A stretch of DNA of 64,000 nucleotides from Squalus acanthias (Eukaryota): NCBI GenBank assembly GCA_030390025.1, contig CM059431.1, forward strand, positions 95,854,001 through 95,918,000, written 5' to 3'. Each line of letters starts with the position of its first letter. The first letter of the stretch is position 1. This document shows positions 11,311-55,498 of the stretch, one piece after another. A program made the position numbers and the translations under genes. The notes below the pieces were generated by a model that had not been told where the DNA came from, made no database searches, and was given only the letters and a program-made list of their open reading frames with translations.

Positions 11311-14300
11311 GAATCTTAGCGTCACCATGGCAGCTTCCTTCAGGTGTGTCATCTTCTTCTGTACCTGCACCCAGCATTGGCGTATAGTGTACAGTGTTGA
11401 GACCGGGAGCCATCTCCTGCTGGGCATGTTGCACTATAGTCCTCTGTGGAGGGTGCCTTGGTGCCAAACACTTTGCATCACTTCATGCATCGAACAGGGG
11501 TTGGCTGCTGCACCACTCCAGATTTGTCCACAGATTCTGTTGGCTACTCTCACGTTGGAGAGTAGCTGATTGGGGACACCAGGAGCGGAACATAAAACAG
11601 CGCGGGAAATAGCGCCAACCTGATTGGAGACACCAGTGACGGAACATAAAACAGCGGGGGAAACAGCACCGACCTGATTGGAGACAGCAGCGGCGGAACA
11701 TAAAACAGCGGGGGAAACAGCACCGAACTGATTGGAGACACCAGGAGCGGAACATAAAACAGCGGGGGAAACAGCACCGACCTGATTGGGAACATCAGGA
11801 GCGGAACATAAAACAGCGGGGGAAACAGCGCCGACCTGATTGGAGACACCAGCGGCGGAACATAAAACAGCGGGGGAAACAGCACCGACCTGATTGGAGA
11901 CACCAGCGGCGGAACATAAAACAGCGGGGAAACAGCACCGACCTGATTGGAGACACCAGTGACGGAACATAAAACAGTGGGGAAACAGCACCGACCTGAT
12001 TGGAGACACCAGTGACGGAACATAAAACAGTGGGGAAACAGCACCGACCTGATTGGAGACACCAGGAACGGAGCATAAAACAGCGGGGGAAACAGCACTA
12101 ACCTGATTGGAGACACCAGCGGCGGCACATAAAACAGCGGGGGAAACAGCACCGACCTGACTGGAGACACCAGTGACGGAACATAAAACAGCGGGGGAAA
12201 CAGCACCGACCTGACTGGAGACACCAGTGACGGAACATAAAACAGCGGGGAAAACAGCGCCGACCTGATTGGAGACACCAGTAACGGAACATTAAACCGC
12301 GGGGGAAACAGCACCGACCTGATTGGAGACACCAGTGACGGAACAAAAACACCGGGGAAACAGCACTGACCTGATTGGAGACACCAGTGACGGAACATAA
12401 AACAGCGGGGGAAACAGCACTAACCTGATTGGAGACACCAGCGGCGGCACATAAAACAGCAAGGGAAACAGCACCGACCTGATTGGAGACACCAGTAACG
12501 GAACACAAAACAGCGGGGGAAACAGCACCGACCTGATTGGAGACACCAGTTGCGGAACATAAAACAGCGAAGGAAACAGCACCGACCTGATTGGAGATAC
12601 CAGCGGCGGAACATAAAACAGCGGGGGAAACAGCACCGACCTGAATGGAGACACCAGTGACAGAACATAAAACAGCGGGGGAAACAGCGCCGACCTGATT
12701 GGAGACACTAGGAGCGGAACATAAAACAGCGGGGGAAACAGCACCGACCTGACTGGAGACACCAGTGACGGAACATAAAACAGCGGGGGAAACAGCGCCG
12801 ACCTGATTGGAGACACCAGGAGCGGAACATAAAACAGCTGGGGAAACAGCGCCGACCTGATTGGAGACACCAGGAGCGGAACATAAAACAGCGGGGGAAA
12901 CAGCACCGACCTGATTGGAGACACCAGGAGCGGAACATAAAACAGCTGGGGAAACAGCGCCGACCTGATTGGAGACACTAGGAGCGGAACATAAAACAGC
13001 CGGGGAAACAGCACCGACCTGATTGGAGACACCAGGAGCGGAACATAAAACAGCTGGGGAAACAGCGCCGACCTGATTGGAGACACCAGGAGCGGAACAT
13101 AAAACAGCTGGGGAAACAGCGCCGACCTGATTGGAGACACTAGGAGCGGAACATAAAACAGCCGGGGAAACAGCACCGACCTGATTGGAGACACCAGGAG
13201 CGGAACATAAAACAGCTGGGGAAACAGCGCCGACCTGATTGGAGACACCAGGAGCGGAACATAAAACAGCTGGGGAAACAGCGCCGACCTGATTGGAGAC
13301 ACTAGGAGCGGAACATAAAACAGCCGGGGAAACAGCACCGACCTGATTGGAGACATCAGCGGCGGAACATAAAACAGCGGGGGAAACAGCACCGATCTGA
13401 TTGGAGACATCAGCGGTGGAACATAAAACAGCCGGGGAAACAGCACCGACCTGATTGGAGAGACTAGGAATGCAACATAAAACAGCGGGGAAACAGCACC
13501 GACCTGATTGGAGACACCAGCGGCGGAACATAAAACAGCGGGGGAAACAGCGCCGACCTGATTGGAGACACCAGGAGTGGAACATAAAACAGCGGAGGAA
13601 ACAGCACCGACCTGATTGGAGACACCAGGAGCGGAACATAAAACAGCGGGGGAAACAGCACCGACCTGATTGGAGACACCAGCGGCGGAACAAAAACAGC
13701 GGGGGAAACAGCACCGACCAGATTGGAGACACGAGGAGCGGAACATAAAACAGCGGGGGAAACAGCACTAACTTGATTGGAGACACCAGCGGCGGAACAT
13801 AAAACAGCGGGGGAAACAGCACCGACCAGATTGGAGACACCAGTGACGGAACATAAAACAGCGGGGGAAACAGCACCGACCAGATTGGAGACACCAGCGG
13901 CGGAACATAAAACAGCCGGGGAAACAGCACCGACCTGATTGGAGACACGAGGAGCGGAACATAAAACAGCCGGGGAAACAGCACCGACCTGATTGGAGAC
14001 ACCAGGAGTGGAACATAAAACAGCGGGGGAAACAGCACCGACCTGATTGGAGACACCTGTGGCGGCCGAACATAAAACAGCGGGGGAAACAGCGCCGACC
14101 TGATTGGAGACACCTGTGGCGGCCGAACATAAAACAGCGGGGGAAACAGCACCGACCTGATTGGAGACACCAGTGGCGGAAAATAAAACAGCGGGGGAAA
14201 CAGCACCGACCTGATTAGAGACACCAGTGGCGGAACATAAAACAGCGAAGGAAACAGCACCGACCTGATTGGAGACACCAGGAGCGGAACATAAAATAGC

Positions 14301-17300
14301 GGGGGAAACAGCACCGACCTGATTGGAGACACTAGGAGCGTAACATAAAATAGCGGGGGAAACAGCACCGACCTGATTGGAGACACCAGTGACGGAACAT
14401 AAAACAGCGGGGGAAACAGCACCGACCTGATTGGAGACACCAGCGGCGGAACATAAAACAGCGGGGGAAACAGCGCCGACCTGATTGGAGACACCAGGAG
14501 CGGAACATAAAATAGCCGGGGAAACAGCACCGACCTGATTGGGAACACCAGGAGCTGAACATAAAATAGCGGGGAAACAGCGCCGACCTGATTGGAGACA
14601 CCAGGAGCGGAACATAAAACAGCGGGGGAAACAGCACCGACCTGATTGGGAACACCAGGAGCTGAACATAAAACAGCGGGGAAACAGCGCCGACCTGATT
14701 GGAGACACCAGGAGCGGAACATAAAACAGCGGGGGAAACAGCACCGACCTGATTGGAGACACTAGGAGCGGAACATGAAACAGCGGGGGAAACAGCACCG
14801 ACCTGATTGGAGACACTAGGAGCGGAACATAAAACAGCGGGGGAAACAGCGCCGACCTGATTGGAGACACCAGCGGCGGAACATAAAACAGCCGGGGAAA
14901 CAGCGCCGACCTGCTTGGAGACACCAAGAGCGGAACATAAAACAGCCGGGGAAACAGCACCGACCTGATTGGAGACACCAGCGGCGGAACATAAAACAGC
15001 GGGGAAACTGCGCCGACCTGCTTGGAGATACCAAGAGCGGAACATAAAACAGCCGGGGAAACAGCACCGACCTGATTGCAGACACCAGCGGCGGAACATA
15101 AAACAACGGGGGAAACAGCACCGACCTGATTGGAGACACTAGGAGCGGAACATAAAACAGCGGGGGAAACAGCACCGACCTGACTGGAGACACCAGGAAC
15201 GGAGCATAAAACAGCGGGGAAACAGCAGCGACCTGATTGGAGACACCAGGAACGGAGCATAAAACAGCGGGGGAAACAGCACTAACCTGATTGGAGACAC
15301 CAGTGACGGAACATAAAACAGCGGTAGAAACAGCACCGACCTGATTGGAGACACGAGGAGCGGAACATAAAACAGCGGGGGAAACAGCGCCGACCTGATT
15401 GGAGACACCAGTAACGGAACATTAAACAGCGGGGGAAACAGCGCCGACCTGATTGGAGACACCTGTGGCGGCCGAACATAAAACAGCGGGGGAAACAGCA
15501 CCGACCTGATTGGAGACACCAGTGGCGGAAAATAAAACAGCGGGGGAAACAGCACCGACCTGATTAGAGACACCAGTGACGGAACATAAAACAGCGGGGA
15601 AACAGCGCCGACCTGATTGGAGACACCAGGAGCGGAACATAAAACAGCGGGGGAAACAGCACCGACCTGATTGGAGATACCAGTGACGGAACATAAAACA
15701 GCGGGGAAACAGCACCGACCTGATTGGAGACACTAGGAGCGCAACATAAAACAGCGGGAAAACAGCACCGACCTGATTGGGAACACCAGGAGCTGAACAT
15801 AAAACAGCGGGGGAAACAGCGCCGACCTGATTGGAGACACCAGTGACGGAACATAAAACAGCGGGGAAACAGCACCGACCTGATTGGAGACACTAGGAGC
15901 GCAACATAAAACAGCGGGAAAACAGCACCGACCTGATTGGGAACACCAGGAGCTGAACATAAAACAGCGGGGGAAACAGCGCCGACCTGATTGGAGACAC
16001 TAGGAGCGCAACATAAAACAACGGGGGAAACAGCGCCGACCTGATTGGAGACACCAGGAGTGGAACATAAAACAGCGGGGGAAACAGCGCCGACCTGATT
16101 GGAGACACCAGGAGCGGAACATAAAACAGCGGGGGAAACAGCGCCGACCTGATTGGAGACACTAGGAGCGGAACATAAAACAGCCGGGGAAACAGCGCCG
16201 ACCTGATTGGAGACACCAGCGGCGGAACATAAAACAGCGGGGAAACAGCGCCGACCTGATTGGAGACACCAAGAGCGGAACATAAAACAGCGGGGAAACA
16301 GCACCGACCTGATTGGAGACACCAAGAGCGGAACATAAAACAGCGGGGGAAACAGCGCCGACCTGATTGGAGACACAAAGAGAGGAACATAAAACAGCGG
16401 GGAAACAGCGCCGACCTGATTGGAGACACCAGGAGCGGAACATAAAACAACGGGGGAAACAGCGCCGACCTGATTGGAGACACAAAGAGAGGAACATAAA
16501 ACAGCGGGGAAACAGCGCCGACCTGATTGGAGACACTAGGAGCGCAACATAAAACAACGGGGGAAACAGCGCCGACCTGATTGGAGACACCAGGAGCGGA
16601 ACATAAAACAGCGGGGAAACAGCACCGACCTGATTGGAGACACTAGGAGCGCAACATAAAACAGCGGGGGAAACAGCACCGACCTGATTGGAGACACCAG
16701 TGACGGAACATAAAACAGCGGGGGAAACAGCACCGACCTGATTGGAGACACTAGGAGCGCAACATAAAACAGCGGGGGAAACAGCACCGACCTGATTGGA
16801 GACACCAGTGACGGAACATAAAACAGCTGGGGAAACATCACCGACCAGATTGGAGACACCAGTGACGGAACATAAAACAGCGGGGGAAACAGCACCGACC
16901 TGATTGGAGACACTAGGAGCGCAACATAAAACAGCGGGGGAAACAGCACCGACCTGATTGGAGACACTAGGAGCGGAACATGAAACAGGGGGGAAACAGC
17001 GCCGACCTGATTGGAGACACTAGGAGCGCAACATAAAACAACGGGGGAAACAGCGCCGACCTGATTGGAGACACCAGGAGCGGAACATAAAACAGCGGGG
17101 AAACAGCACCGACCTGATTGGAGACACTAGGAGCGCAACATAAAACAGCGGGGGAAACAGCACCGACCTGATTGGAGACACCAGTGACGGAACATAAAAC
17201 AGCGGGGGAAACAGCGCCGACCTGATTGGAGACACAAAGAGAGGAACATAAAACAGCGGGGAAACAGCGCCGACCTGATTGGAGACACTAGGAGCGCAAC

Positions 17301-18833
17301 ATAAAACAACGGGGGAAACAGCGCCGACCTGATTGGAGACACCAGGAGCGGAACATAAAACAGCGGGGAAACAGCACCGACCTGATTGGAGACACTAGGA
17401 GCGCAACATAAAACAGCGGGGGAAACAGCACCGACCTGATTGGAGACACCAGTGACGGAACATAAAACAGCGGGGGAAACAGCACCGACCTGATTGGAGA
17501 CACTAGGAGCGCAACATAAAACAGCGGGGGAAACAGCACCGACCTGATTGGAGACACCAGTGACGGAACATAAAACAGCTGGGGAAACATCACCGACCAG
17601 ATTGGAGACACCAGTGACGGAACATAAAACAGCGGGGGAAACAGCACCGACCTGATTGGAGACACTAGGAGCGCAACATAAAACAGCGGGGGAAACAGCA
17701 CCGACCTGATTGGAGACACTAGGAGCGGAACATGAAACAGGGGGGAAACAGCGCCGACCTGATTGGAGACACCAGGAGCGGAACATAAAACAGCCGGGGA
17801 AACAGCACCGACCTGATTGGAGACAAAAGCGGCGGAACATAAAAGAGCAGGGAAAACAGCGCCGACCTGATTGGAGACACCAGGAGCGGAACATAAAACA
17901 GCCGGGGAAACAGCACCGACCTTCTTAGAGACACCAGGAGCGGAACATAAAACAGCGGGGGAAACAGCACCGACCTGATTGGAGACACCAGTGGCGGAAC
18001 ATAAAACAGCCGGGGAAACAGCACCGACCTGATTGGAGACACTAGGAGCGGAACCTAAAACAGCGGGGGAAACAGCGCCGACCTGATTGGAGACACCAGG
18101 AGCGGAATCTAAAACAGCCGGGTAAACAGCAGCGACCTGATTAGAGACACTAGGAGCGGAACCTAAAACAGCGGGGGAAACATCACCGACCAGATTGGAG
18201 ACACCAGTGACGGAACATAAAACAGTGGGGGAAACAGCGCCGACCTGATTAGAGACACTAGGAGCGGAACATAAAACAGCGGGGGAAACAGCGCCGACCT
18301 GATTGGAGACACCAGTGACGGAACATAAAACAGCTGGGGAAACATCACCGACCAGATTGGAGACACCAGTGACGGAACATAAAACAGCCGGGGAAACAGC
18401 GCCGACCTGATTGGAGACACCAGTGACGGAACATAAAACAGCGGGGAAACAGCACCGACCTGATTGGAGACACCAGGGGGTAGAAATTAGGTCGCGCCCC
18501 ATTTGGGGCGCAAATATCATCCGGACGCAAATATTAGCGCCTGGCGCTAATTATCGGCACTGACAGGAAACTTCACTTTTACCGCCCCGGGAGGTGAGTG
18601 GAGCGCTAAAGCAGGCGCTGCACACCTCTCTTAAGGCGCAAAGGCCAAGGAGTGAGGCGCTAACTCAGCGCGCAAGCGCAGCGCAGCTGCTGCCAGTTAG
18701 CGAGGGAACACAGACACACTGGCGCCGGACACTTCTTAAAGCGGGGGGGGCCACTTGCTCCCCAGCCACACCCTGCTCATTGCAGCCTTGAATCTCAGCC
18801 TGGAGAGACCTGTAATCCATTTCGCTGCCAAGC

Positions 18834-20765
18834 ATGGAGAGGGTGAGAGAACGCGCTCATCGCTTCACCGAGCGGGCCTTGGATGCTCTGGTTGACACAG
18901 TGGAGCGCAGACGATGTATGCTGTTCCCGGAGAGTGGCAGGAGGCCTTTGCCACGCGAGTTCAGAAGAGTGTGGAGGGAGGTGGCTCAGAGCGTCTCCTC
19001 CAGGAGCATGGTGCCCAGGACCCATACTCAATGCCGCAAAAAGTTCAACGACCTCACTCGGGTCGTCAGGGTGAGTGGCTTTTTCTCAATACCTCTCCAT
19101 CCCTCCATCTCAACCTCACTCTATGGCCAGAGGGTCTTAAAACCCCAATGCACAACACTCATCCAACACCTATGGCCCTTTCATCAAACACACACACACA
19201 TTCCACACTTTGCATACAGTAAGGGCTATTCACCTATGGGAGGCACATCAGGCAAGACCATGGCTGTATACAGTAAGGGCTATTCACCTATGGGAGGCAC
19301 ATTAGGCAAGACCATGGCTGTATACAGTAAGGGCTATTCACCTATGGGAGGCACATCAGGCAAGACCATGGCTGTATACAGTAAGGGCTATTCACCTATG
19401 GGAGGCACATCAGGCAAGACCATGGCTGTATATTTACTCAGATGCTGTCCTTTTTCTTGCAGGCTAAGCTGGCTCATAATAGGAGACAGCAGCAACGGAC
19501 AGATGGAGGGCGGCTTCAGCTGCAACCCCTCAGCGATCTGGAGGAGCGCGTCCACAGGATTGTGGCAAGCCGGGTGATCGGTCCCGTCGCCACTGGAGAC
19601 GCCGACCCCGTTGTGGACAGCAATGGTAAGGTCATCACCTTTTTGTCCTCTGTCCTTCCACTTGTCCCTCACAACACCAGCCTTTGACACTTTCAATCCA
19701 ACTTGCTAACTCGCTGCACTTATTCCTCCCTTACTGCCACCCTGTCCTCACGCTAAAGCCACTCTTGTACCTCCCTGCTTTCAGATGGTGATTCACCAGC
19801 TGAGGAGACGGGCCCTGAAGCTGCCACTGGGAGTGATGCTGCAGCTGAGGAGGAAGAGGAAGCCAGAGCATCAGTGCCACCCTCTCCCGAGGAAGCCCAT
19901 GCCCACACTGGGAACACGCCTTCCCCGGAGGGGAGCAGGGGGGAAGGGGCTGATGATGGTGAAGCTCCAGGACCCAGCGGGCTGCAGCAACGCCATGGGG
20001 GGGGGTAGGGAAGAACGGGGGCCTTCTCCCCAGAGGGAGAGTATGCCAGACACTCCTACTGCAATGGACGCAGAGGAGGAGCGGCTGATTGCAGAAATGA
20101 ACACCCAGGCGGTGGGCATGCACACTGAGCTCATGGGTGCAGTGGGAAGGGTGCCCGATTGCATTGAGTCACTGGCAAGGAGTGTGAAGCACTTCGCTGT
20201 AGCACAGGCGGATGCCACACTAACGCTTAGTGCTGCAATTCAGTCACTGGCTGCCGTGATCCCACCTCTGACTGCTCTCATACAGACTCAGATGGAGGCC
20301 ACGCGAGCACAGACTGCTGCCAACCTCGATGGTTCGTGCACATGTCCCCGGGGCTGTCACCGCGCCGCAGCAGGCCAGCAATCTGTTCTCCGGCAAATTG
20401 CTCCGGATGCTGAAGTGCTGCCCCGTGGGAGTGCCAGTGTGTCGGGCGAGCAGGGAGTTGCTGGCCTCTCTCACGATGACAGCATTCCTGCTGCCAACAC
20501 TGTCACTTCTCCACTGCACTTGCCACCGCCTGTAGGACAGACTGCTGCCGCCCATGCAGAGTTGGTGCAGTCTGCAGCCGGGCCCTCCAGGCCCAGAAGT
20601 GGTCGAGGCCGTCCTTCAGGGGCATCTGCAGTGTCAGGGTCTGACGAGCAGCAGCCTTCCACCAGCCTTGCTGCAGCCACTGAGGTCCCATTACGGAGGA
20701 GCAGTAGGGTTAGAAGGGGGGAAGTGCGCAAGGGAAGGAGATCACCCTCGAAGGGCAAAAAGTAG
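18834..20765 (+). CDS. Harbinger Myb/SANT-like (MADF/trihelix-type) DNA-binding protein; exons 18834-19070, 19463-19625, 19785-20765; one-base frameshift at G9 (19997-20005)
   Basis: Exon 1 RFTERALDALVDTV..LFP..WREVAQSV..RTHTQCRKKFNDL; donors GTGAGT (19071) and GTAAGG (19626); acceptors TTGCAG (19462) and TTTCAG (19784); exon 2 AKLAHNRRQQQRTDGG; 459 aa if the run is G8. Confidence 0.8.
19215..19430 (+). repeat. 4 x 54-bp tandem repeat in intron 1 of the Harbinger Myb gene
   Basis: Unit TACAGTAAGGGCTATTCACCTATGGGAGGCACATCAGGCAAGACCATGGCTGTA starting at 19215, 19269, 19323 and 19377; one C>T at 19303. Confidence 0.95.
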
Positions 20766-21043
20766 GAGGTGTGACAAAATGCTGGTCATTTTTTTATTAT
20801 AGGCCGAGGTTCATGGTCCAACTTTTGTTTAGTGTTTTGGACATTATCTCCAGGTTGTGAGAACCAGTTATGTTATTGACTGTTTTTTTGTGTTTATTTC
20901 TATGAGTTTGTCATGAGGAATTGTAAAATAAATAAGTTTCTGTATTCAAAATATACATGGCTGGTGGTTGGAATTATTGGTGCCTTGGCCGGCTTAGGGG
21001 TTGCGTGCTGGGTTGATTAGTGTTTGTAGCAATGGCAGGGGCC

Positions 21044-22195
21044 CTAGAAGCGGCTTGCTATTAGTCGTTGACGGACGGCCCTTGCAGTTTGACCATTGTG
21101 GGCCGCCCTCCTGCCTTGGTGCTGCTGATGATCATCGTCCTCGTCCTCTTCCTCCTCCTCCTCTGGTGGTGCTACAAAGCCTGGTGGCATTGGCTGGGTC
21201 CTGAGGATTGCCATGTTGTGCAACATGCAGCACACGACTACGAAGTTCGAAACTTGCTCAGGCGAGTACTGCAGGGCTCCTCCGGAATGGTCCAGACAGC
21301 GGAACCGTTGTTTCAGCACGCCGATTGTGCGCTCAATAATGTTCCTGGTTGCTTGATGGCTTTCATTGTACCGCAGCTCAGCAGGGGTGTTTGGCATACG
21401 GAGCGGTGTCATCAGCCAGGTGCTCAATGCGTACCCCTTGTCCCCCAGAAGCCAACCAACTGGCTGTTGCGGTGCTTCGAAAACTTCTGCCACAGCAGTC
21501 TGGCGCAGGATGAAAGCATCGTGGCAGCTGCCCTGATAGTGGGCATTGACAGCGAGTATCACCTGTCTGTGGTCACAGACCAACTGCACATTCAAGGAAT
21601 GGAACCCCTTTCTGTTCCTGAATTCCTCTGCATTCTCTCGCGGAGCACGCAAAGCCACATGCGTGCAGTCAATGGCGCCCTGCACCATGGGGAAGCCCGC
21701 TACCCTCGCAAAGCCCAGAGCACGGTCACGCTGCTTGTCTGGGGTCATAGGGAAAGAGATGAAGTCTCGTCTCCTTCTGAAGAGGGCATTGGTGACCTGC
21801 CGGATGCAGCGATGCACCGCAAACTGGGAGATATTTGCGAGGTCCCCAACAGCAGCTTGGAATGAGCCAGTGGCGTAGAAGTTCAAAGCCACTGTGACCT
21901 TCACTGCCACCGACAGAGACGTCCTGGACCTCAGCTGAGGCTGCAGATCTGGCTGCAGCAGGTGGCAGAGCTCAGTGACCACCTCCTTGCTGAATCGCAG
22001 CCTTCGCAAACACAGCTCCTCGGACATATGGATGTAGGAGAGCTGTTCACGATATACCCTGGGAGGGTAAGCTCTCCTGTACATGCGCCTGATGGCCCTC
22101 CTCCGTCTGGCCATCATTGCCACTCTCTGTCTGCGTCTTGGTATCCTCCGATTCAGCTGGAGCAGGACGACGCCCCCAATCATTGCAGCCCCCAT
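21044..22195 (-). CDS. Harbinger (HARBI1-family, DDE_Tnp_4-type) transposase, intact, 383 aa from ATG 22195
   Basis: Uninterrupted ORF with N-terminal helical region (LRRLRFSKE..VALNFYATG), GAIDCTH, NRKGFHSLNVQLVCD, HDA, LLGDKGY, IIERTIGVLKQRFRCL, CCMLHN and an acidic tail. Confidence 0.93.
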   Translation of the reverse strand: MGAAMIGGVVLLQLNRRIPRRRQRVAMMARRRRAIRRMYRRAYPPRVYREQLSYIHMSEELCLRRLRFSKEVVTELCHLLQPDLQPQLRSRTSLSVAVKVTVALNFYATGSFQAAVGDLANISQFAVHRCIRQVTNALFRRRRDFISFPMTPDKQRDRALGFARVAGFPMVQGAIDCTHVALRAPRENAEEFRNRKGFHSLNVQLVCDHRQVILAVNAHYQGSCHDAFILRQTAVAEVFEAPQQPVGWLLGDKGYALSTWLMTPLRMPNTPAELRYNESHQATRNIIERTIGVLKQRFRCLDHSGGALQYSPEQVSNFVVVCCMLHNMAILRTQPMPPGFVAPPEEEEEEDEDDDHQQHQGRRAAHNGQTARAVRQRLIASRF

Positions 22196-37144: not shown

Positions 37145-37984
37145 GGGGGAAAAATTCAGTCGCGCCCCATTTGGGGCGCAAATATCGGCCGGGCGCAAAG
37201 ATTAGCGCCTGGCGCTAATTATCGCCACCGACTGCAAACTTCACTTTTATCGCCCCTGGAGGTGATTGCAGCGCTAAATCAGGCGCTTCACACCTGTCTT
37301 AAGGCGCAAAGGCCGAGGAGCGAGGCGCTACCTCAGAGCGCTGGCGAAGCTCATGTGATGTCAGTCAGCAATGGAACACACACACAATGGCACGGGCCAG
37401 TTCTTAAAGGGGATGGTTAATCTCGCTTTCCATCCACATCCTGCTCATTGCAGCCTTGAATCTCGGCCTGGAGAGACCTGCACATCAAATCTGCTGGAAA
37501 GAACAATGGAGAGTACCAGGCCAAGAGCTCAGAGTGCAGCCCCCCACAGTCTCTGCTAAATCGATACAAGGAATGGCAAATCAAAATGGACCTGCAAAGT
37601 GCTGCTCAGTACCCAAAACTCCTTCACATAACGTTGAATCTCTCCAGAAGTCTCTACCTCTCTCTCTCAGAATGCGTAGTTCAAAAATGGCACCAACAAT
37701 AAAAGGCAGGAAGCGGTCACCTTTAAATAGCGCTCCCCCTTTCCCTTCATGACTGCAGAACGCTCCCATCAACCTGTCGTTGCTAGCGTCAGGCGGTAAG
37801 GCAGGGGGCGCCACTCAATAACCGCTCCGGGGCGATACCGGGGCGTTGCGCACTCGAGTGACGTCATGATCTGCCGGCGCAGGAGATCGTGGCGGTAGTG
37901 TTCAGCGCCGCCGCAAAATGTCTAGTTAATTTCGCGAGCGGCGCAAACTTCGCCGCGCCCGGGCACTAGCTGCTTTGCGCCCCA
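37145..37984 (+). mobile_element. Harbinger MITE family A, array copy 4, right TIR deleted
   Basis: Same truncation junction as copy 3. Confidence 0.92.
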
Positions 37985-39587: not shown

Positions 39588-40459
39588 GGGGGAAAAATTC
39601 AGTCGCGCCCCATTTGGGGCGCAAATATCGGCCGGGCGCAAAGATTAGCGCCTGGCGCTAATTATCGCCACCGACTGCAAACTTCACTTTTATCGCCCCT
39701 GGAGGTGATTGCAGCGCTAAATCAGGCGCTTCACACCTGTCTTAAGGCGCAAAGGCCGAGGAGCGAGGCGCTATCTCAGAGCGCTGGCGAAGCTCATGTA
39801 ATGTCAGTCAGCAATGGAACACACACACAATGGCACGGGCCAGTTCTTAAAGGGGATGGTTAATCTTGCTTTCCATCCACATCCTGCTCATTGCAGCCTT
39901 GAATCTCGGCCTGGAGAGACCTGCACATCAAATCTGCTGGAAAGAACAATGGAGAGTACCAGGCCAAGAGCTCAGAGTGCAGCCCCCAAAGTCTCTGCTA
40001 AATCAATACAAGGAATGGCAAATCAAAATGGACCTGCAAAGTGCTGCTCAGTACCCAAAACTCCTTCACATAACGTTGAATCTCTCCAGAAGTCTCTACC
40101 TCTCTCTCTCAGAATGCGTAGTTCAAAAATGGCACCAACAATAAAAGGCAGGAAGCGGTCACCTTTAAATAGCGCTCCCCCTTTCCCTTCATGACTGCAG
40201 AACGCTCCCATCAACCTGTCGGCAGGGGGCGCCACTCAATAACCGCTCCGGGGCGATACCGGGGCGTTGCGCACTCGAGTGACGTCATGATCTGCCGGCG
40301 CAGGAGATCGTGGCGGTAGTGTTCAGCGCCGCCGCAAAATGTCTAGTTAATTTCACGAGCGGCGCAAACTTCGCCGCGCCCGGGCGCTAGCTGCTTTGCG
40401 CCCCATTAGCGCCCTCTTCAGGCGCTAACGGGAGGCGCAACCAACTGAATTTTTCCCCC
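39588..40459 (+). mobile_element. Harbinger MITE family A, array copy 5 (872 bp, 21-bp internal deletion)
   Basis: Both TIRs and TSD CAG present; lacks gttgctagcgtcaggcggtaa at about 40220. Confidence 0.95.
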
Positions 40460-43400
40460 CAGGAGCGGAACATAAAACAGCGGGGAAACAGCGCCGACCT
40501 GATTGGAGACACCAGGAGCGTATGATAAAACAGCCGGGGAAACAGCACCGACTGATTGGAGACACCAGTGGCCGAACATAAAAAAGCCGGGGAAACAGCG
40601 CCGACCTGATTGGAGACACCAGGAGCGAAACATAAAACAGCGAGGGAAACAGCACCGACCTGATTGGAGACACCAGGAGCGGAACATAAAACAGCGGGGG
40701 AAACAGCGCCGACCTGATTGGAGACACCAGGAGTGGAACATAAAACAGCAGGGAAACAGCGCCGACCTGATTGGAGACACCAGGAGCGGAACATAAAACA
40801 GCGGGGAAACAGCGCCGACCTGATTGGAGATACCAGTGACGGAACATAAAACAGCCGGGGAAACAGCGCCGACCTGATTGGAGACACCAGTGGCGGCCGA
40901 ACATAAAACAGCGGGGAAACAGCACCGACCTGATTCGAGACACTAGTGACGGAACATAAAACAGCGGGGAAACAGCGCCGAACTGATTGGAGACACTAGG
41001 AGCGGAACATAAAACCGCGGGGGAAACAGCGCCGACCTGATTGGGAACACCAGGATCGGAACAAAAAACAGCGGGGAAACTGCGGCGACCTGATTGGAGA
41101 CACCAGCAGCGGAACATAAAACAGCGGGGGAAACAGCGCCGACCTGATTGGAGACACCAGTGACGGAACATAAAACAGCGGGGAAACAGCACCGACCTGA
41201 TTGGAGACACCAGGAGCGGAGCACAAAACAGCGGGGGAAACAGCACCGACCTGATTGGGAACACCAGGAGCGGAACCTAAAACAGCGGGGGAAACAGTAC
41301 CGACCTGACTGGAGACACCAGGAGCAGAACATTAAACAGCGGGGGAAACAGCACCGACCTGATTGGAGACACCAGGAGCGTATGATAAAACAGCCGGGGA
41401 AACAGCGCCGACCTGATTGGAGACACCAGGAGCGAAACATAAAACAGCGGGGGAAACAGCACCGACCTGATTGGAGACACCAGGAGCGGAACATAAAACA
41501 GCAGGGAAACAGCGCCGACCTGATTGGAGACACCAGTGGCGGCCGAACATAAAACAGCGGGGGAAACAACACCGACCTGATTGGAGACACCAGTGGCGAC
41601 CGAACATAAAACAGCGGGGAAACAGCACCGACCTGATTGGAGACACCAGTGACGGAACATAAAACAGCCGAGGAAACAGCGCCGACCTGATTGCGAACAC
41701 CAGGAGCGGAACATAAAACAGCGGGGGAAACTGCGCCGACCTGATTGGAGACACCAGTGACGGAAAATAAAACAGATGGGGAAACAGCGCCGAACTGATT
41801 GGAGACACTAGGAGCGGAACATAAAACCGCGGGGGAAACAGCGCCGACCTGATTGGGAACACCAGGATCGGAACATAAAACAGCGGGGAAACAGCGCCGA
41901 CCTGATTGGAGACACCAGGAGCGGAACCTAAAACAGCGGGGGAAACAGCACCGACCTGATTGGGAACACCAGCAGCGGAACATAAAACAGCGGGGAAACA
42001 GCGCCGACCTGATTGGAGACACCAGTGACGGAACATAAAACAGCGGGGAAACAGCACCGACCTGATTGGAGACACCAGGAGCGGAACATAAAACAGCGGG
42101 GAAACAGCACCGACCTGATTGGAGACACCAGGAGCGGAACCTAAAACAGCGGGGAAACAGCACCGACCTGATTGGGAACACCAGGAGCGGAACATTAAAC
42201 AGCGGGGTAAACAGCACCGACCTGATTGGGAACACCAGTGACGTAACATAAAACAGCCGGGGAAGCAGCGTCGACCTGATTGGGAACACCAGGAAAGGAA
42301 CATAAAACAGCGGGGGAAACAGCGCCGACCTGATTAGAGACACCAGTGGCGGAACATAAAACAGCGGGGGAAACAGCGCCGACCTGATTGGAGATACCAG
42401 TGACGGAAAATAAAACAGCCGAGGAAACAGCGCCGACCTAATTGCGAACACCAGGAGCGGAACATAAAACAGCGGGGGAAACTGCGCCGACCTGATTGCG
42501 AACACCAGGAGCGGAACATAAGACAGCGGGGGAAACTGCGCCGACCTAAATGGGAACACCAGGAGCGGATCATAAAACAGCGGGGGAAACAGCGCCGACC
42601 TGAATGGGAACACCAGGAGCGGAACATAAAACAGCGGGGCAAACAGCACCGACCTGATTGGAGACACTAGCGGCGGAACATAAAACAGCCGGGGAAACAG
42701 CACCGACCTGATTAGAGACACCAGCAGCGGAACATAAAACAGCGGGGGAAACAGCACCGACCTGATTAGAGACACCAGCGGCGGAACATAAAACAGCCGG
42801 GGAAACAGCACCGACCTGATTGGAGACACACGCGGCGGAACATTAAACAGCCGAGGAAACAGCACCGACCTGATTGGAGACACCAGCGGCGGAACATAAA
42901 ACAGCCGGGGAAACAGCGCCGACCTGATTGGAGACAACAGCGGCGGAACATAAAACAGCGGGGGAAACAGCGCCGACCTGATTGGGAACAGCAGGAGCGG
43001 AACATAAAACAGCGGGGGAAACAGCGCCGACCTGATTGAAGACACAAGTGGCGGCGGAACATAAAACAGCGGGGGAAACAGCACCGACCTGATTGGAGAC
43101 ACCAGCAGCGGAACATAAAACAGCGGGGAAACAGCACCGACCTGATTGGAGACACCAGCAGCGGAACATAAAACGGCGGGGGAAACAGCACCGACCTGAT
43201 TGGGAACACCAGGAGCGGAACCTAAAACAGCGGGGAAACAGCGCCGACCTGATTGGGAACACCAGGAGCGGAACATAAAACAGCCGGGGAACAGCGCCGA
43301 CCTGATTGGAGACACCAGGAGCGGAACATAAAACAGCCGGGGAAACAGCGCCGACCTGATTGGAGACACTAGCAGCGGAACATAAAACAGCCGGGGAAAC

Positions 43401-46400
43401 AGCGCCGACCTGATTGGAGACACCAGCGGCGGAACATAAAACAGCCGGGGAAACAGCGCTGACCTGATTGGAGACACCAGGAGCGGAACATAAAACAGCC
43501 GGGGAAACAGCTCCGACCTGATTGGAGACACCAGCGACGGAACATAAAACAGCGGGGGAAACAGCACCGACCTGATTGGAGACACCAGCGGCGGAACATA
43601 AAACAGCGGGGGAACAGCGCCGACCTGATTGGAGACAATAGGAGCGTAAAATAAAACAGCGGGGGAAACAGCACCGACCTGATTGGAGACAACAGTGACG
43701 GAACATAAAACAGCGGGGGAAACAGCACCGACCTGATTGGAGACAGCAGCGGCGGAACATAAAACAGCGGGGGAACAGCGCCGACCTGATTGGAGACACC
43801 AGGAGTGGAACATAAAACAGCGGGGAAAACAGCGCCGACCTGATTGGAGACAATAGGAGCGTAAAATAAAACAGCGGGGGAAACAGCACCGACCTGATTG
43901 GAGACAACAGTGACGGAACATAAAACAGCGGGGGAAACAGCACCGACCTGATTGGGAACACCAGGAGCGGAACATAAAACAGCGGGGGAAACAGCACCGA
44001 CCTGATTGGGAACACCAGGAGTGGAACATAAAACAGCGGGGGAAACAGCACCGACCTGATTGGGAACACCAGCAGCGGAACATAAAACAGCGGGGAAACA
44101 GCACCGACTTGATTGGGAACACCAGGAGCGGATCATAAAACAGCGAGGGAAACAGCACCGACCTGACTGGAGACACCAGCGGCGGAACATAAAACAGCCG
44201 GGGAAACAGAGCCGACCTGATTGGAGACACCAGGAGCGGAACATAAAACAGCGGGGGAAACAGCACCGACCTGATTGGAGACACCAGGAGCGGAACATAA
44301 AACAGCGGGGGAAACAGCACCGACCTGATTGGAGACACCAGGAGCGGAACATAAAACAGCGGGGGAAACAGCACCGACCTGATTGGAGACACACGCGGCG
44401 GAACATTAAACAGCCGGGGAAACAGCACCGACCTGATTAGAGACACCAGCGGCGGAACATAAAACAGCCGGGGAAACAGAGCCGACCTGATTGGAGACAC
44501 TAGCGGCGGAACATAAAACAGCGGGGGAAACAGCACCGACCTGATTAGAGACACCAGCGGCGGAACATAAAACAGCCGGGGAAACAGCACCGACCTGATT
44601 GGAGACACACGCGGCGGAACATTAAACAGCCGAGGAAACAGCACCGACCTGATTGGAGACAACAGCGGCGGAACATAAAACAGCCGGGGAAACAGCGCCG
44701 ACCTGATTGGAGACAACAGCGGCGGAACATAAAACAGCCGGGGAAACAGCGCCGACCTGATTGGAGACAACAGCGGCGGAACATAAAACAGCCGAGGAAA
44801 CAGCACCGACCTGATTGGAGACAACAGCGGCGGAACATAAAACAGCCGGGGAAACAGCACCGACCTGATTGGAGACACACGCGGCGGAACATTAAACAGC
44901 CGGGGAAACAGCACCGACCTGATTGGAGACACCAGCGGCGGAACATAAAACAGCCGGGGAAACAGCGCCGACCTGATTGGAGACAACAGCGGCGGAACAT
45001 AAAACAGCCGGGGAAACAGCACCGACCTGATTGGGAACAGCAGGAGCGGAACATAAAACAGCGGGGGAAACAGCGCCGACCTGATTGAAGACACAAGTGG
45101 CGGCGGAACATAAAACAGCGGGGGAAACAGCACCGACCTGATTGGAGACACCAGGAGCGGAACATAAAACAGCGGGGAAACAGCACCGACCTGATTGGAG
45201 ACACCAGCAGCGGAACATAAAACAGCGGGGAAACAGCACCGACCTGATTGGAGACACCAGGAGCGGAACATAAAACAGCGGGGAAACAGCACCGACCTGA
45301 TTGGAGACACCAGCAGCGGAACATAAAACGGCAGGGGAAACAGCACCGACCTGATTGGGAACACCAGGAGCGGAACCTAAAACAGCGGGGAAACAGCGCC
45401 GACCTGATTGGGAACACCAGGAGCGGAAAATAAAACAGCGGGGGAAACAGCACCGACCTGATTGGGAACACCAGGAGCGGAACATAAAACAGCCGGGGAA
45501 CAGCGCCGACCTGATTGGAGACACCAGGAGCGGAACATAAAACAGCCGGGGAAACAGCAGCGACCTGATTGGGAACACCAGGAGCGGAACATAAAACAGC
45601 CGGGGAAACAGCGCCGACCTGATTGGAGACACTAGCAGCGGAACATAAAACAGCCGGGGAAACAGCGCCGACCTGATTGGAGACACCAGCGGCGGAACAT
45701 AAAACAGCCGGGGAAACAGCACCGACCTGATTGGAGACACCAGGAGCGGTACATAAAACAGCGGGGAAACAGCGCTGACCTGATTGGGGACACCAGGAGC
45801 GGAACATAAAACAGCCGGGGAAACAGCACCGACCTGATTGGAGACACCAGTGGCGAAGCATAAAACAGCATGGGAAACAGCACCGACCTGATTGGAGACA
45901 CTAGGAGCGGAACATAAAACAGCGGGGGAAACAGCGCCGACCTGATTGGAGACACCAGTGGCGGCCGAACATAAAACAGCGGGGGAAACAGCGCCGACCA
46001 GATTGGGAACACCAGGAGTGGAACATAAAACAGCGGGGAAATCGCACCGACCTGATTGGAGACACCAGTGGTGGATGAACATAAAACAGCGGGGAAACAG
46101 CACCGACCTGATTGGAGACACCAGGAGCGGAACATAAAACAGCCGAGGAAACAGCGCCGACCTGATTGGGAACACCAGGAGCAGAACATAAAACAGCGGG
46201 GGAAACTGCGCCGACCCGATTGGAGACACCAGTGACGGAACATAAAACAGCGGGGGAAACAGCGCCGACCTGATTGGAGACACCAGTGACGGAACATAAA
46301 ACAGCGGGGAAACAGCACCGACCTGATTGGAGACACCAGGAGCGGAACCTAAAACAGCGGGGAAACAGCACCGACCTGATTGGGAACACCAGGAGCGGAA

Positions 46401-49400
46401 CATTAAACAGCGGGGTAAACAGCACCGACCTGATTGGGAACACCAGTGACGTAACATAAAACAGCCGGGGAAGCAGCGTCGACCTGATTGGGAACACCAG
46501 GAAAGGAACATAAAACAGCGGGGGAAACAGCGCCGACCTGATTAGAGACACCAGTGGCGGAACATAAAACAGCGGGGGAAACAGCGCCGACCTGATTGGA
46601 GATACCAGTGACGGAAAATAAAACAGCCGAGGAAACAGCGCCGACCTAATTGCGAACACCAGGAGCGGAACATAAAACAGCGGGGGAAACTGCGCCGACC
46701 TGATTGCGAACACCAGGAGCGGAACATAAGACAGCGGGGGAAACTGCGCCGACCTAAATGGGAACACCAGGAGCGGATCATAAAACAGCGGGGGAAACAG
46801 CGCCGACCTGAATGGGAACACCAGGAGCGGAACATAAAACAGCGGGGCAAACAGCACCGACCTGATTGGAGACACTAGCGGCGGAACATAAAACAGCCGG
46901 GGAAACAGCACCGACCTGATTAGAGACACCAGCAGCGGAACATAAAACAGCGGGGGAAACAGCACCGACCTGATTAGAGACACCAGCGGCGGAACATAAA
47001 ACAGCCGGGGAAACAGCACCGACCTGATTGGAGACACACGCGGCGGAACATTAAACAGCCGAGGAAACAGCACCGACCTGATTGGAGACACCAGCGGCGG
47101 AACATAAAACAGCGGGGGAAACAGCGCCGACCTGATTGGGAACAGCAGGAGCGGAACATAAAACAGCGGGGGAAACAGCGCCGACCTGATTGGAGACACT
47201 AGGAGCGGAACATAAAACAGCCGGGGAAACAGCGCCGACCTGATTGGAGACACCAGCGGCGGAACATAAAACAGCGGGGAAACAGCGCCGACCTGATTGA
47301 AGACACAAGTGGCGGCGGAACATAAAACAGCGGGGGAAACAGCACCGACCTGATTGGAGACACCAGCAGCGGAACATAAAACAGCGGGGAAACAGCACCG
47401 ACCTGATTGGAGACACCAGCAGCGGAACATAAAACGGCGGGGGAAACAGCACCGACCTGATTGGGAACACCAGGAGCGGAACCTAAAACAGCGGGGAAAC
47501 AGCGCCGACCTGATTGGGAACACCAGGAGCGGAACATAAAACAGCCGGGGAACAGCGCCGACCTGATTGGAGACACCAGGAGCGGAACATAAAACAGCCG
47601 GGGAAACAGCGCCGACCTGATTGGAGACACTAGCAGCGGAACATAAAACAGCCGGGGAAACAGCGCCGACCTGATTGGAGACACCAGCGGCGGAACATAA
47701 AACAGCCGGGGAAACAGCGCTGACCTGATTGGAGACACCAGGAGCGGAACATAAAACAGCCGGGGAAACAGCTCCGACCTGATTGGAGACACCAGCGACG
47801 GAACATAAAACAGCGGGGGAAACAGCACCGACCTGATTGGAGACACCAGCGGCGGAACATAAAACAGCGGGGGAACAGCGCCGACCTGATTGGAGACAAT
47901 AGGAGCGTAAAATAAAACAGCGGGGGAAACAGCACCGACCTGATTGGAGACAACAGTGACGGAACATAAAACAGCGGGGGAAACAGCACCGACCTGATTG
48001 GAGACAGCAGCGGCGGAACATAAAACAGCGGGGGAACAGCGCCGACCTGATTGGAGACACCAGGAGTGGAACATAAAACAGCGGGGAAAACAGCGCCGAC
48101 CTGATTGGAGACAATAGGAGCGTAAAATAAAACAGCGGGGGAAACAGCACCGACCTGATTGGAGACAACAGTGACGGAACATAAAACAGCGGGGGAAACA
48201 GCACCGACCTGATTGGGAACACCAGGAGCGGAACATAAAACAGCGGGGGAAACAGCACCGACCTGATTGGGAACACCAGGAGTGGAACATAAAACAGCGG
48301 GGGAAACAGCACCGACCTGATTGGGAACACCAGCAGCGGAACATAAAACAGCGGGGAAACAGCACCGACTTGATTGGGAACACCAGGAGCGGATCATAAA
48401 ACAGCGAGGGAAACAGCACCGACCTGACTGGAGACACCAGCGGCGGAACATAAAACAGCCGGGGAAACAGAGCCGACCTGATTGGAGACACCAGGAGCGG
48501 AACATAAAACAGCGGGGGAAACAGCACCGACCTGATTGGAGACACCAGGAGCGGAACATAAAACAGCGGGGGAAACAGCACCGACCTGATTGGAGACACC
48601 AGGAGCGGAACATAAAACAGCGGGGGAAACAGCACCGACCTGATTGGAGACACACGCGGCGGAACATTAAACAGCCGGGGAAACAGCACCGACCTGATTA
48701 GAGACACCAGCGGCGGAACATAAAACAGCCGGGGAAACAGAGCCGACCTGATTGGAGACACTAGCGGCGGAACATAAAACAGCGGGGGAAACAGCACCGA
48801 CCTGATTAGAGACACCAGCGGCGGAACATAAAACAGCCGGGGAAACAGCACCGACCTGATTGGAGACACACGCGGCGGAACATTAAACAGCCGAGGAAAC
48901 AGCACCGACCTGATTGGAGACAACAGCGGCGGAACATAAAACAGCCGGGGAAACAGCGCCGACCTGATTGGAGACAACAGCGGCGGAACATAAAACAGCC
49001 GAGGAAACAGCACCGACCTGATTGGAGACAACAGCGGCGGAACATAAAACAGCCGGGGAAACAGCACCGACCTGATTGGAGACACACGCGGCGGAACATT
49101 AAACAGCCGGGGAAACAGCACCGACCTGATTGGAGACACCAGCGGCGGAACATAAAACAGCGGGGAAACAGCGCCGACCTGATTGGAGACAACAGCGGCG
49201 GAACATAAAACAGCGGGGAAACAGCACCGACCTGATTGGGAACAGCAGGAGCGGAACATAAAACAGCGGGGGAAACAGCGCCGACCTGATTGAGACACAA
49301 GTGGCGGCGGAACATAAAACAGCGGGGGAAACAGCACCGACCTGATTGGAGACACCAGGAGCGGAACATAAAACAGCGGGGAAACAGCACCGACCTGATT

Positions 49401-51730
49401 GGAGACACCAGCAGCGGAACATAAAACAGCGGGGAAACAGCACCGACCTGATTGGAGACACCAGGAGCGGAACATAAAACAGCGGGGAAACAGCACCGAC
49501 CTGATTGGAGACACCAGCAGCGGAACATAAAACGGCAGGGGAAACAGCACCGACCTGATTGGGAACACCAGGAGCGGAACCTAAAACAGCGGGGAAACAG
49601 CGCCGACCTGATTGGGAACACCAGGAGCGGAAAATAAAACAGCGGGGGAAACAGCACCGACCTGATTGGGAACACCAGGAGCGGAACATAAAACAGCCGG
49701 GGAACAGCGCCGACCTGATTGGAGACACCAGGAGCGGAACATAAAACAGCCGGGGAAACAGCAGCGACCTGATTGGGAACACCAGGAGCGGAACATAAAA
49801 CAGCGGGGGAAACAGCGCCGACCTGATTGGAGACACTAGCAGCGGAACATAAAACAGCGGGGAAACAGCGCCGACCTGATTGGAGACACCAGCGGCGGAA
49901 CATAAAACAGCCGGGGAAACAGCACCGACCTGATTGGAGACACCAGGAGCGGTACATAAAACAGCGGGGGAAACAGCGCTGACCTGATTGGGGACACCAG
50001 GAGCGGAACATAAAACAGCCGGGGAAACAGCACCGACCTGATTGGAGACACCAGTGGCGAAGCATAAAACAGCATGGGAAACAGCACCGACCTGATTGGA
50101 GACACTAGGAGCGGAACATAAAACAGCGGGGGAAACAGCGCCGACCTGATTGGAGACACCAGTGGCGGCCGAACATAAAACAGCGGGGGAAACAGCGCCG
50201 ACCAGATTGGGAACACCAGGAGTGGAACATAAAACAGCGGGGAAATCGCACCGACCTGATTGGAGACACCAGTGGTGGATGAACATAAAACAGCGGGGAA
50301 AATAGCACCGACCTGATTGGAGACACCAGGAGCGGAACATAAAACAGCCGAGGAAACAGCGCCGACCTGATTGGGAACACCAGGAGCAGAACATAAAACA
50401 GCGGGGGAAACTGCGCCGACCTGATTGGAGACACCAGGAGCGGAACATAAAACAGCGGGGGAAACAGCACCGACCTGATTGGAGACACCAGGAGCGGAAC
50501 ATAAAACAGCGGGGGAAACTGCGCCAACCTGACTGGAGACACCAGTGACGGAACATAAAACAGCCGGGGAAACAGCGCCGACCTGATTGGAGACACCAGT
50601 GGCGGAACATAAAACAGCGGGGGAAACAGCGCCGACCTGATTGGAGACACCAGTGGCGGAACATAAAACAGCGGGGGAAACAGCGCCGACCTGATTGGAG
50701 ACACCAGTGGCGGCCGAACATAAAACAGCGGGGGAAACAGCGCCGACCTGATTGGAGGCACTAGTGGCGGCCGAACATAAAACAGCGGGGAAACAGCGCC
50801 GACCTGATTGGAGGCACTAGGAGCGGAACATAAAACCGCGGGGGAAACAGCACCGACCTGATTGGGAACACCAGAAGTGGAACATAAAACAGCGGGGAAA
50901 CAGCACCGACCTGATTGGAGACACCAGCGGTGGAACATAAAACAGCGGGGGAAACAGCGCCGACCTGATTGGAGACACCAGCGGTGGAACATAAAACAGC
51001 GGGGGAAACAGCACCGACCTGATTGGAGACACTAGGAGCGGAACATAAAACAGCGGGGAAACAGCGCCGACCTGATTGGAGACACTAGGAGCGGAACATA
51101 AAACAGCGGGGAAACAGCACCGACCTGATTGGGAACACCAGGAGTGGAACATAAAACAGCGGGGGAAACAGCGCCGACCTGATTGGAGACACCAGTGGTG
51201 GCCGAACATAAAACAGCGGGGAAACAGCGCCGACCTGATTGGAGACACCAGTGGCAGCCGAACATAAAACAACGGGGGAAACAGCGCCTACCTGATTAGA
51301 GACACCAGTGGCGGCCGAACATAAAACAGCGGGGAAACAGCGCCGACCTGATTGGAGACACTAGGAGCGGAACATAGAACAGCGGGGGAAACAGCGCCAA
51401 CCTGATTGGAGACACTAGGAGCGGAACATAAAACAGCGGGGGAAACAGCACCGACCTGATTGGAGACATTAGGAGCGGAACATAAAACAGCGGGGGAAAC
51501 AGCGCTGACCTGATTGGAGACAGCCGCGGCGGAACATAAAACAGCGGGGGAAACAGCGCCGACCTGATTGGAGACACCAGGAGTGGAACATAAAACAGCG
51601 GGGGAAACAGCGCCGACCTGATTGGAGACAGCAGGAGCGGAACATAAAACAGCGGGGGAAACAGCGCCGACCTGATTGGAGACAGCAGGAGAGGCGGAAC
51701 CGTCAATGGTTTATCAAAAAAAACGTATAG

Positions 51731-51771
51731 TGACGTCACAGGACAGCAGGTAGGTGATTGGTTGGTGAGTA
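51731..51771 (+). promoter_or_regulatory. CRE site, inverted CCAAT box and splice-donor-like GTGAGT in the CR1 5'UTR
   Basis: TGACGTCA at 51731-51738, then TGATTGG and GGTGAGT; motif match only. Confidence 0.4.
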
Positions 51772-51946
51772 TTAAGGTTTTTTTTTCTCTCTGACCTAGG
51801 TCAGTGGTTTAACCTAGGAGTGGAACACTATAACGTACTGTATTATATTTATAGCTTAACTAGTTAAACTATTTAATATAACTATAAATAATAATTGAAT
51901 AAAGACTTTAACTAATTAAATAAATAAAATAAGGCTAGACTAATAT

Positions 51947-55305: not shown

Positions 55306-55498
55306 GGTAATTGTTTCTGTTTATTGATGAAATGCCATCCTTGTGTGAATGTATTAAAATTAGGTGATGGCAAACTGTTGGCATGATGGCATCTGTTATT
55401 TCGGCTTAGGCAGCTCCATATTGCGGGCTCCGCGACACTTGCGTGGTCAGGTTGGTGGTCAGAGTGAAAGGAGGCCAGAGAGTCATGTCCATTGTCTA

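Follow-up and report, generated by a model that had tools for sequence, protein, structure and literature searches.

Our data indicate that a 40-kb tandem array in the genome of Squalus acanthias very probably originated from the 5′ end of a retrotransposon that still adjoins it. The array lies in a stretch of 64,000 nucleotides (assembly GCA_030390025.1, contig CM059431.1, positions 95,854,001 to 95,918,000, forward strand), which is called the window below and to whose first base coordinates refer unless another contig is named. A CR1-like long interspersed nuclear element (LINE) would have inserted at this locus with a short run of 54-bp monomers at its 5′ end, and the run would then have grown in place to about 575 units. 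An earlier reading of the window from its letters only (the sequence-only reading) had proposed that the satellite is the expanded monomer of a CR1 5′ untranslated region (UTR). This proposal is supported here, because sister copies of the LINE carry the monomers at the same junction. The array and the LINE are made up as follows.

11566–51691, plus strand: tandem array of the 54-bp CR1 5′ monomer with 9.2 kb of inserted DNA transposons (Tandem Repeats Finder, TRF; nhmmer)
about 51672/51673–51700, plus strand: last, truncated monomer (gattggagacagcaggagaggcggaac) and the monomer/UTR junction, read from the sequence; the junction is common to sister copies
51692–51946, plus strand: unique 5′UTR with GTGACGTCAC at 51730–51739, GACAGCAGG at 51742–51750 and TGATTGG at 51755–51761, all conserved in sister copies
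51947–52900, plus strand: remnant of open reading frame 1 (ORF1), a Cys-rich N-terminus followed by an esterase-like part in another frame, with stops and frameshifts
53050–54825, plus strand: ORF2 remnant, part 1, with Exo_endo_phos_2 (E = 4.9e-13) and the N-terminal half of the reverse transcriptase (RT; RVT_1, E = 1.1e-13)
about 54826–57250, minus strand: decayed Harbinger-type insertion of another family than those in the array, about 2.4 kb, which splits the RT; DDE_Tnp_4 fragments; limits approximate, taken from the contiguity of a sister copy
57251–58307, plus strand: ORF2 remnant, part 2, with the C-terminal half of RVT_1 (E = 1.5e-14) and the 3′ tail ...tatatcctatgtaat

A profile of the 54-bp unit gave 578 nhmmer matches in the window, on the plus strand throughout and with none beyond the array. 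Seven blocks without monomer homology, 9183 bp in sum, interrupt the array (nhmmer), and after their subtraction about 30.9 kb of monomer DNA remains, which corresponds to about 575 units. The array noticed in the sequence-only reading is confirmed, but it is not pure, as 23% of it is DNA transposon. The monomers have a mean identity of 93.6% to the majority sequence and of 89.7% to one another, and their variation is focused on a block of 3 nt (CCAG-GAG/TGA/CGG/CAG-CGG) and one A/G site. TRF also scored periods of 108 and 162 bp. The best score was that of 162 bp, but identities at lags of one to three units are barely above those of random pairs, and a strong 3-monomer higher-order repeat is unsupported.

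On its left the array begins mid-monomer (CTGATTGGGGACACC...) and abuts non-repeated DNA. Its first base is phase 2 of the monomer (CTGATTGG...), which is the usual 5′ terminus of sister elements. On its right it ends in the truncated unit, which reaches 51700, and the ORF1 ATG follows at 51947; a degenerate last monomer about 250 bp upstream of this ATG had been noticed in the sequence-only reading. The form GACAGCAGG occurs three times in the window, at 51627 and 51681 in the last two monomers, as that reading had also noted, and at 51742 in the unique 5′UTR. At position 51631 the window has G, and the contigs of all four runs compared have C. Hence the GACAGCAGG form seen in the last two monomers is private to this locus. 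The repetition of monomer words in the UTR had been used as an argument for homology. The repetition is real, but it amounts to one 9-mer and one 7-mer, is statistically too weak as a proof and does not carry the argument here.

The LINE is a non-long-terminal-repeat (non-LTR) retrotransposon that runs on the plus strand from 51692 to about 58307. It had been called a full-length CR1, and this holds for its extent. It is not intact, as ORF1 contains stops and frameshifts and the RT is split, and the element is dead. ORF1 with an esterase (GDSL/SGNH-like) domain is known for CR1-like elements. The decayed ORF1 piece of the window matched Lipase_GDSL_2 with an E-value of 0.0062 and 17.5 bits, under the Pfam cut-off of 32.9 bits. 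The frame one base past the ORF1 ATG is rich in stops, and the esterase-like part lies in that shifted frame; stops in the frame of the ATG itself were read by eye from the sequence and not computed. In ORF2 an endonuclease of the apurinic/apyrimidinic (AP) type is followed by the RT, as expected of a CR1-clade LINE. The 3′ end ...ccgtatatcctatgtaat at about 58307 lacks poly(A) and coincides with the point where other copies cease to match. The element is probably CR1-like, an assignment drawn from its architecture and 3′ tail. No target duplication is evident at 11565/58308.

Monomers in sister copies and in other arrays

Sister copies were sought in the 3.7-Gb assembly with positions 51692–52300 (the unique UTR and the start of ORF1) as the query. 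Of 3818 candidate 5′ ends, the best 40 were scored (90–94% identity), and 29 sister loci were taken with flanks of 1.5 kb. Whether sister CR1 copies have a few monomers upstream had been set in advance as a test of the proposed origin. In 27 of the 29 copies monomer sequence is joined to the UTR at the fusion point of the window, with 0.3–16.4 units. TRF found an array of 2.2–16.4 units ending at the start of the UTR in 16 copies; by eye, 11 more have 0.3–1.6 units and two have none. No array among these sisters is longer than 1.5 kb.

At least four monomer types (A–D) precede the same UTR. Type A is that of the window and has variants of 54, 57, 42 and 35 bp, and types B, C and D have sequences of their own, with periods of about 51–65 bp. 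A tree was made from LINE positions 41–1500 of 35 rows by a quick method with SH-aLRT (Shimodaira–Hasegawa-like approximate likelihood ratio test) support only, three rows being less than half filled. It is star-like, which fits a burst. One clade (SH-aLRT 97) unites the copies of types B, C and D with a single monomer-less copy. The monomer type has thus evolved along with the element, and types track LINE subfamilies. The terminal branch of the window copy is 0.043 (median 0.036), so the window LINE is an ordinary decayed member of its family.

The position of the outer end also follows a rule. The first monomer base was located in 21 type-A arrays; one locus had no profile match and a duplicated pair was counted once, which leaves 19 independent arrays. 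In 13 of these the first base lies at phase 1–7 of 54, at (CC)TGATTGG, where about 2.5 would be expected from a uniform distribution. The family thus has a preferred 5′ terminus within each monomer. The window array starts at phase 2, so its distal end resembles the 5′ end with which a single copy inserted, and its growth would have been internal.

Arrays were also sought from the side of the monomer, with 3 kb of the window array as the query. The best 10 of 162 candidates were scored and gave nine loci outside the window (contigs are given here by the short labels of the analysis, C1 and so on, that of the window being C7). Seven arrays are on placed contigs (C22 twice, C7:91.0 Mb, C13, C5, C1 and C7:32.6 Mb), have 10.6–21.4 units, and all lead directly into LINE position 2–24. 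The array at C7:19.63 Mb also adjoins a CR1 5′UTR. With three arrays on C21, the proximal end lies on a CR1 5′UTR in 11 of the 11 arrays in which this end is visible. The arrays outside this count are that on C1583, two on C1002 (one reaching the contig end) and that at C21:12.917 Mb. Over the 29 sisters and the seven placed arrays the maximum is 21.4 units and the number of units ranges from 0 to 21. A 5′UTR of 31 kb is therefore not the norm of the family.

The unplaced contigs C1583 and C1002 each have about 70 units of the 57-bp variant. The C1583 array was considered as a CR1-free satellite and set aside as such, since it breaks exactly at the start of a 99%-identical high-copy element. 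This young element lies at C1583:10656–11351; the 40 matches scored for it are all about 99% identical, and many form pairs on one strand with a spacing of about 11 kb, in the manner of LTRs. As this break looks like an LTR-type insertion, the contrary outcome named in the sequence-only reading, that is, sisters lacking the monomer and a satellite unconnected with CR1, was not seen.

Of the 1649 genomic occurrences of a 29-nt monomer word, 175 are in the window. For a word specific to the 57-bp variant the count is 1295, of which 282 are forward and 1013 are reverse. The forward occurrences are fully accounted for by C21:12654110–12673350 (246) and C1583 (36). The forward array on C21 is at least 19.2 kb long, starts at a gap of 500 N (12653610–12654109) and ends on a CR1 5′UTR. 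The reverse arrays on C21 are the following.

C21:12254181–12255841, reverse: 28 units, 1.7 kb; proximal end on a CR1 5′UTR
C21:12448409 to at least 12472382, reverse: at least 24 kb; proximal end on a CR1 5′UTR
C21:12917004–12925534, reverse: at least 8.5 kb; the private UTR word lies 1.7 kb below the first detected unit

The private UTR word of 35 nt has three matches in the genome, all at these three loci, and the first two loci have the same internal rearrangement of the LINE. The three loci are, as judged from these common features, duplicates of one CR1 copy. As the arrays on them measure 1.7, at least 24 and at least 8.5 kb, array length has changed more than 10-fold on one insertion. 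The expansion in the window is not a single event, since 57-bp arrays of at least 19, at least 24 and at least 8.5 kb exist on C21. At least four 57-bp arrays in both orientations lie there within 0.7 Mb (12.25–12.93 Mb), near the end of a contig of 13.6 Mb. By word counts the reverse arrays together may hold about 1300 units, more than the window.

Growth in place and inserted transposons

Within the window array, transposon insertions and an internal duplication record events after the insertion of the LINE. These features are as follows; limits of the first two are accurate to about 20 bp.

18485–22700, minus strand: autonomous PIF/Harbinger element of about 4.2 kb (4216 bp), inserted in a monomer at CCAG/GAG (CCAG|GAG)
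27629–28497, plus strand: copy 1 of a miniature inverted-repeat transposable element (MITE), about 870 bp, with the terminal inverted repeat (TIR) GGGGGGAAAAATTCAG, of the Harbinger family of the 4.2-kb element
29821–30688, plus strand: MITE copy 2, 99.7% identical to copy 1
32898–33655, plus strand: distant MITE relative, 758 bp, about 66–72% identical over the part in common; an independent insertion at the same monomer site (TAG/GAG, i.e. TAG|GAG)
35081–35893, plus strand: MITE copy 3, with a 3′ deletion in common with copy 4
37160–37971, plus strand: MITE copy 4, with the deletion of copy 3; its downstream flank of 600 bp is 97% identical to that of copy 3
39603–40449, plus strand: MITE copy 5, 96.1–97.0% identical to the other four
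41992–49002, plus strand: internal segmental duplication of pure monomer array, in which 41992–44741 (2.75 kb) recurs 4261 bp downstream

The amplification was independent of transposition. This growth in place is indicated by the co-amplified MITEs, the 2.75-kb duplication and the unequal arrays on the C21 duplicates. The 2.75-kb stretch, detected by a diagonal count of 60-mers, is 95.9% identical to its second copy, compared with 88–93% in in-register control pairs. The five MITEs in the array (about 812–869 bp) are 96.1–99.7% identical among themselves, and their identities to two dispersed copies in the window are 85.8–88.1% and 93.1–95.4%. A rare monomer variant, GATTGGGAAC, precedes all five. 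One MITE insertion followed by at least four duplications would be the simplest reading. The two dispersed copies, at 6781–7665 and 59154–60045, flank the locus and share 87% identity. We do not propose a regular higher-order unit of 2.2 kb, as the flanks of the MITEs are mostly no closer than controls. An unrelated 30-bp repeat of 4.6 units lies at 63355–63491 (TRF score 204).

The 4.2-kb Harbinger has an open transposase ORF of 419 amino acids (21044–22303, minus strand; DDE_Tnp_4, E = 9.9e-38) and a Myb/SANT ORF (18816–19577, plus strand; Myb_DNA-bind_5, E = 1.4e-8). The family has the TIR GGGGGGAAAAATTCAG.../...CTGAATTTTTCCCCCC with CAG or TAG on either side, a 3-bp target duplication, and may still be active. 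The 4.2-kb element contains a 54-bp tandem repeat of its own (4.1 units, about 19214–19432). Three members of this family, namely the 4.2-kb element, the 870-bp MITE and the 758-bp relative, entered the same spot of the monomer (CCAG|GAG or CTAG|GAG), and the monomer seems to contain a preferred target of the family.

Two CR1 copies lie 9 kb apart on C22 (7472709 and 7481760), with near-identical bodies (terminal branches 0.013 and 0.005), and carry 21.4 and 14.7 monomers. This pair is a small further case of a shift in array length after local duplication.

The following course of events would account for these data. The 5′ end of the family would consist of a short tandem run of 54–57-bp modules before the unique 5′UTR, of which a new copy inherits from none to about 20. 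One LINE copy would have inserted at the locus of the window with such a normal 5′ end. A tandem run might be prone to unequal exchange and slippage, and at a few loci (C7 and the C21 cluster) this could have led to hundreds of units. Later growth might have proceeded in larger units of 2–4 kb, taking inserted elements along by segmental duplication. Harbinger-type transposons would have landed during this growth, one MITE being co-amplified, and the LINE would have decayed meanwhile. Homology and a common junction with sister copies, growth in place and recurrence at other loci are shown by the data, and the number of units at the start, the kind of recombination and the promoter function of the monomers are what we infer.

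Several observations weigh against this reading or limit it. In nine of the ten MITE pairs neither 600-bp flank is above in-register controls (0.85–0.93 vs 0.88–0.93); the exception is the downstream flank of the pair 35081/37160 (0.97). Exact sharing extends only about 90 bp past the MITE. Since independent insertions chose the same site, identity of site alone proves nothing about duplication of the MITE, and duplication of a macro-unit is clean for only some of the copies. The neighbour effect is near nil, with identities of 0.905–0.916 at lags of one to three units and 0.897 for random pairs, and the window monomers show no gradient of similarity toward the LINE. The order of growth is therefore unreadable from the array. 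The scored samples, 40 of 3818 5′ ends and 10 of 162 arrays, are the best matches and are biased to close relatives. The C21 forward array begins at the 500-N gap, and long arrays may be assembled inaccurately. Neither an empty site nor an orthologous locus was seen. In a genome search with the left flank (11116–11565), the first 195 bp were repetitive and the array-adjacent 255 bp matched only themselves among the 40 matches scored, which means that no paralogous empty site is present among these.

Alternative origins of the array

A different order of events has to be considered, in which a 54-bp satellite existed before the element. A CR1 downstream of it would have captured monomers as its 5′ end through transcription from the satellite and then spread them, the window or a C21 locus being the site of capture. 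That LINE families gain new 5′ ends by capture is an established idea for L1, and it speaks for such an origin. A junction common to all descendants would be expected here too, and the array is CpG-rich and promoter-like. However, four monomer types on the same UTR track LINE subfamilies, which argues for a long co-evolution inside the element. The 54-bp (C7) and 57-bp (C21) variants both occur in big arrays and in ordinary dispersed copies, which would require two captures. Private change, seen in no sampled sister, amounts to 4.3% in the window LINE, and the left edge of its array is the canonical 5′ terminus of the element. Moreover, one C21 CR1 copy has arrays of both 28 and at least 420 units. 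We therefore regard a satellite-first origin as unlikely. A chance adjacency of an unrelated satellite and a CR1 insertion would have only the adjacency in its favour, and it is refuted by the window junction, which recurs in 27 of the 29 sister copies and in all 11 of the other arrays.

The length of the array might instead be an artefact, with a shorter real run inflated or several loci merged by the assembler. Arrays that are both long and homogeneous invite errors of assembly, a gap of 500 N borders the forward array on C21, and unplaced contigs contain the same repeat. Against this, the window array has unique landmarks (the 4.2-kb Harbinger, the 758-bp relative and MITEs with distinct deletions), and with an identity of only about 90% its monomers offer ample anchors for reads. 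We hold such an error to be improbable at this locus. It is also conceivable that a long array was already in the source element or was made at integration, for example by template switching of the RT on monomer RNA, and the 0–21 units among insertions could partly reflect integration events. But a 5′UTR transcript of more than 30 kb is far beyond the range of the 29 sisters, the co-amplified MITEs and the internal duplications must post-date the insertion, and duplicates of one C21 copy differ in length more than 10-fold. A pre-formed array is accordingly very improbable, and growth after insertion from a short inherited run is the account that we retain.

Monomers as probable promoter modules and relation to known systems

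The monomers most likely act in active elements as repeated modules for promotion and start of transcription. This reading is based on the 5′ ends at one phase, the ATTGG word at that phase and the CpG-rich arrays. If transcription started in every monomer, a preferred terminus of this kind would result, and the data suggest a defined start site in each unit. The ATTGG word is presumably a CCAAT-type box, and we take GTGACGTCAC in the unique UTR to be a palindrome like the cyclic AMP response element. Contigs of four runs cover the monomer and LINE bins; nothing is drawn from them, as contig depth neither ranks the parts nor shows starts. The observed/expected ratio of CpG is 0.81–0.90 in the window array, 0.40 in the LINE body and 0.45–0.50 in the flanks. 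It is 0.93 in the pooled short arrays of sisters and 0.62 in the C21 arrays, and 0.30–0.46 in the attached LINE bodies. The monomer arrays have a GC content of 0.54–0.56 and a composition like that of a CpG island. CpG transitions make up 62 of 1186 departures from the majority monomer, though CpG accounts for 6 of its 54 positions. This richness could reflect low germline methylation, or equally amplified variants rather than new mutations, and is a lead only.

A bolder interpretation, which we put forward tentatively and think rather doubtful, is that the monomer is an intrinsically expansion-prone promoter module like a CpG island, which seeded satellites at least twice (54 bp on C7 and 57 bp on C21). 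The arrays might then stay unmethylated and competent for transcription, with hundreds of start sites and CCAAT-type boxes. The hints are the CpG ratio of the array compared with the LINE body and flanks, and the low count of CpG transitions. If this is true, long arrays would be large sinks of transcription factors or sources of satellite RNA and not inert DNA. Most likely, the 40-kb block is a by-product without a required function.

The arrangement resembles the promoters of mouse L1 (L1Md A, Gf, Tf), in which tandem monomers at the extreme 5′ end precede a unique UTR; the junction is fixed here. As in L1Md, the number of units varies from copy to copy, the types are specific to subfamilies and very long runs occur occasionally. 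According to the accessible text of Zhou & Smith 2019 (PMC6454616), mouse L1 promoters mostly have 2–3 monomers, the longest has 50 type-A monomers (about 11.3 kb), and 5′-terminal structures of many units are stated as seen only in mouse. Unlike in mouse L1, the element here belongs to a CR1-like clade and its unit is 54–57 bp rather than about 200 bp. The run of about 575 units (31 kb) in the window, with at least 340–420 on C21, is about 10 times the mouse record in units.

Satellites derived from transposable elements (TE) are also known. PisTR-A comes from the 3′UTR of the pea element Ogre and ENSAT1 from the 5′UTR of Atenspm, according to the parts available of two reviews (PMC9659126, PMC6947457), in which the UTR-derived cases come from plant elements. 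The window array, about 31 kb head-to-tail, and the C21 arrays of at least 19 and 24 kb are like these in that an already tandem, non-coding internal part of a TE was amplified to a long array. LINE-derived satellites in the same sources stem from ORF2 or the 3′UTR (cetacean common satellite, PROsat, Pvc20 and chicken HinfI). In contrast, the unit here is a LINE 5′ promoter monomer, of which the available parts of the two reviews give no example. Chicken HinfI and CR1-C-derived centromeric repeats likewise contain CR1-family sequence in tandem arrays (PMC9659126, PMC6947457). The chicken CR1 units hold pieces of ORF2 or the 3′UTR, however, whereas here the 5′ monomer is repeated and the parent element is still attached. 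In the chicken LL2R repeat, as far as described in the accessible part of a 2026 preprint, a CR1 5′UTR drives transcription through an array that is unrelated to it, so the relation is of another kind. No description of a satellite from a CR1 5′ monomer was found in the open-access literature without supplements, and a query directed at sharks likewise gave none. The present case joins two kinds already known, namely satellites derived from TEs and the monomeric L1 promoters of the mouse, and is no new category.

By the time a satellite is discovered, its origin has as a rule long been lost. In the present case the array has kept its parent element, and the initial condition of 0–21 units can be read from dozens of sister copies. 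Transposon insertions in the array serve as time marks, and an independent group of arrays on a different chromosome indicates that such expansion recurs. With these features, the passage from a retrotransposon promoter repeat to a satellite becomes open to direct test, by way of methylation, transcription and the variation of array length in populations. The monomeric design of promoters, known mainly from mouse L1, is thereby extended to a LINE of the CR1-like kind, whose unit is much shorter.

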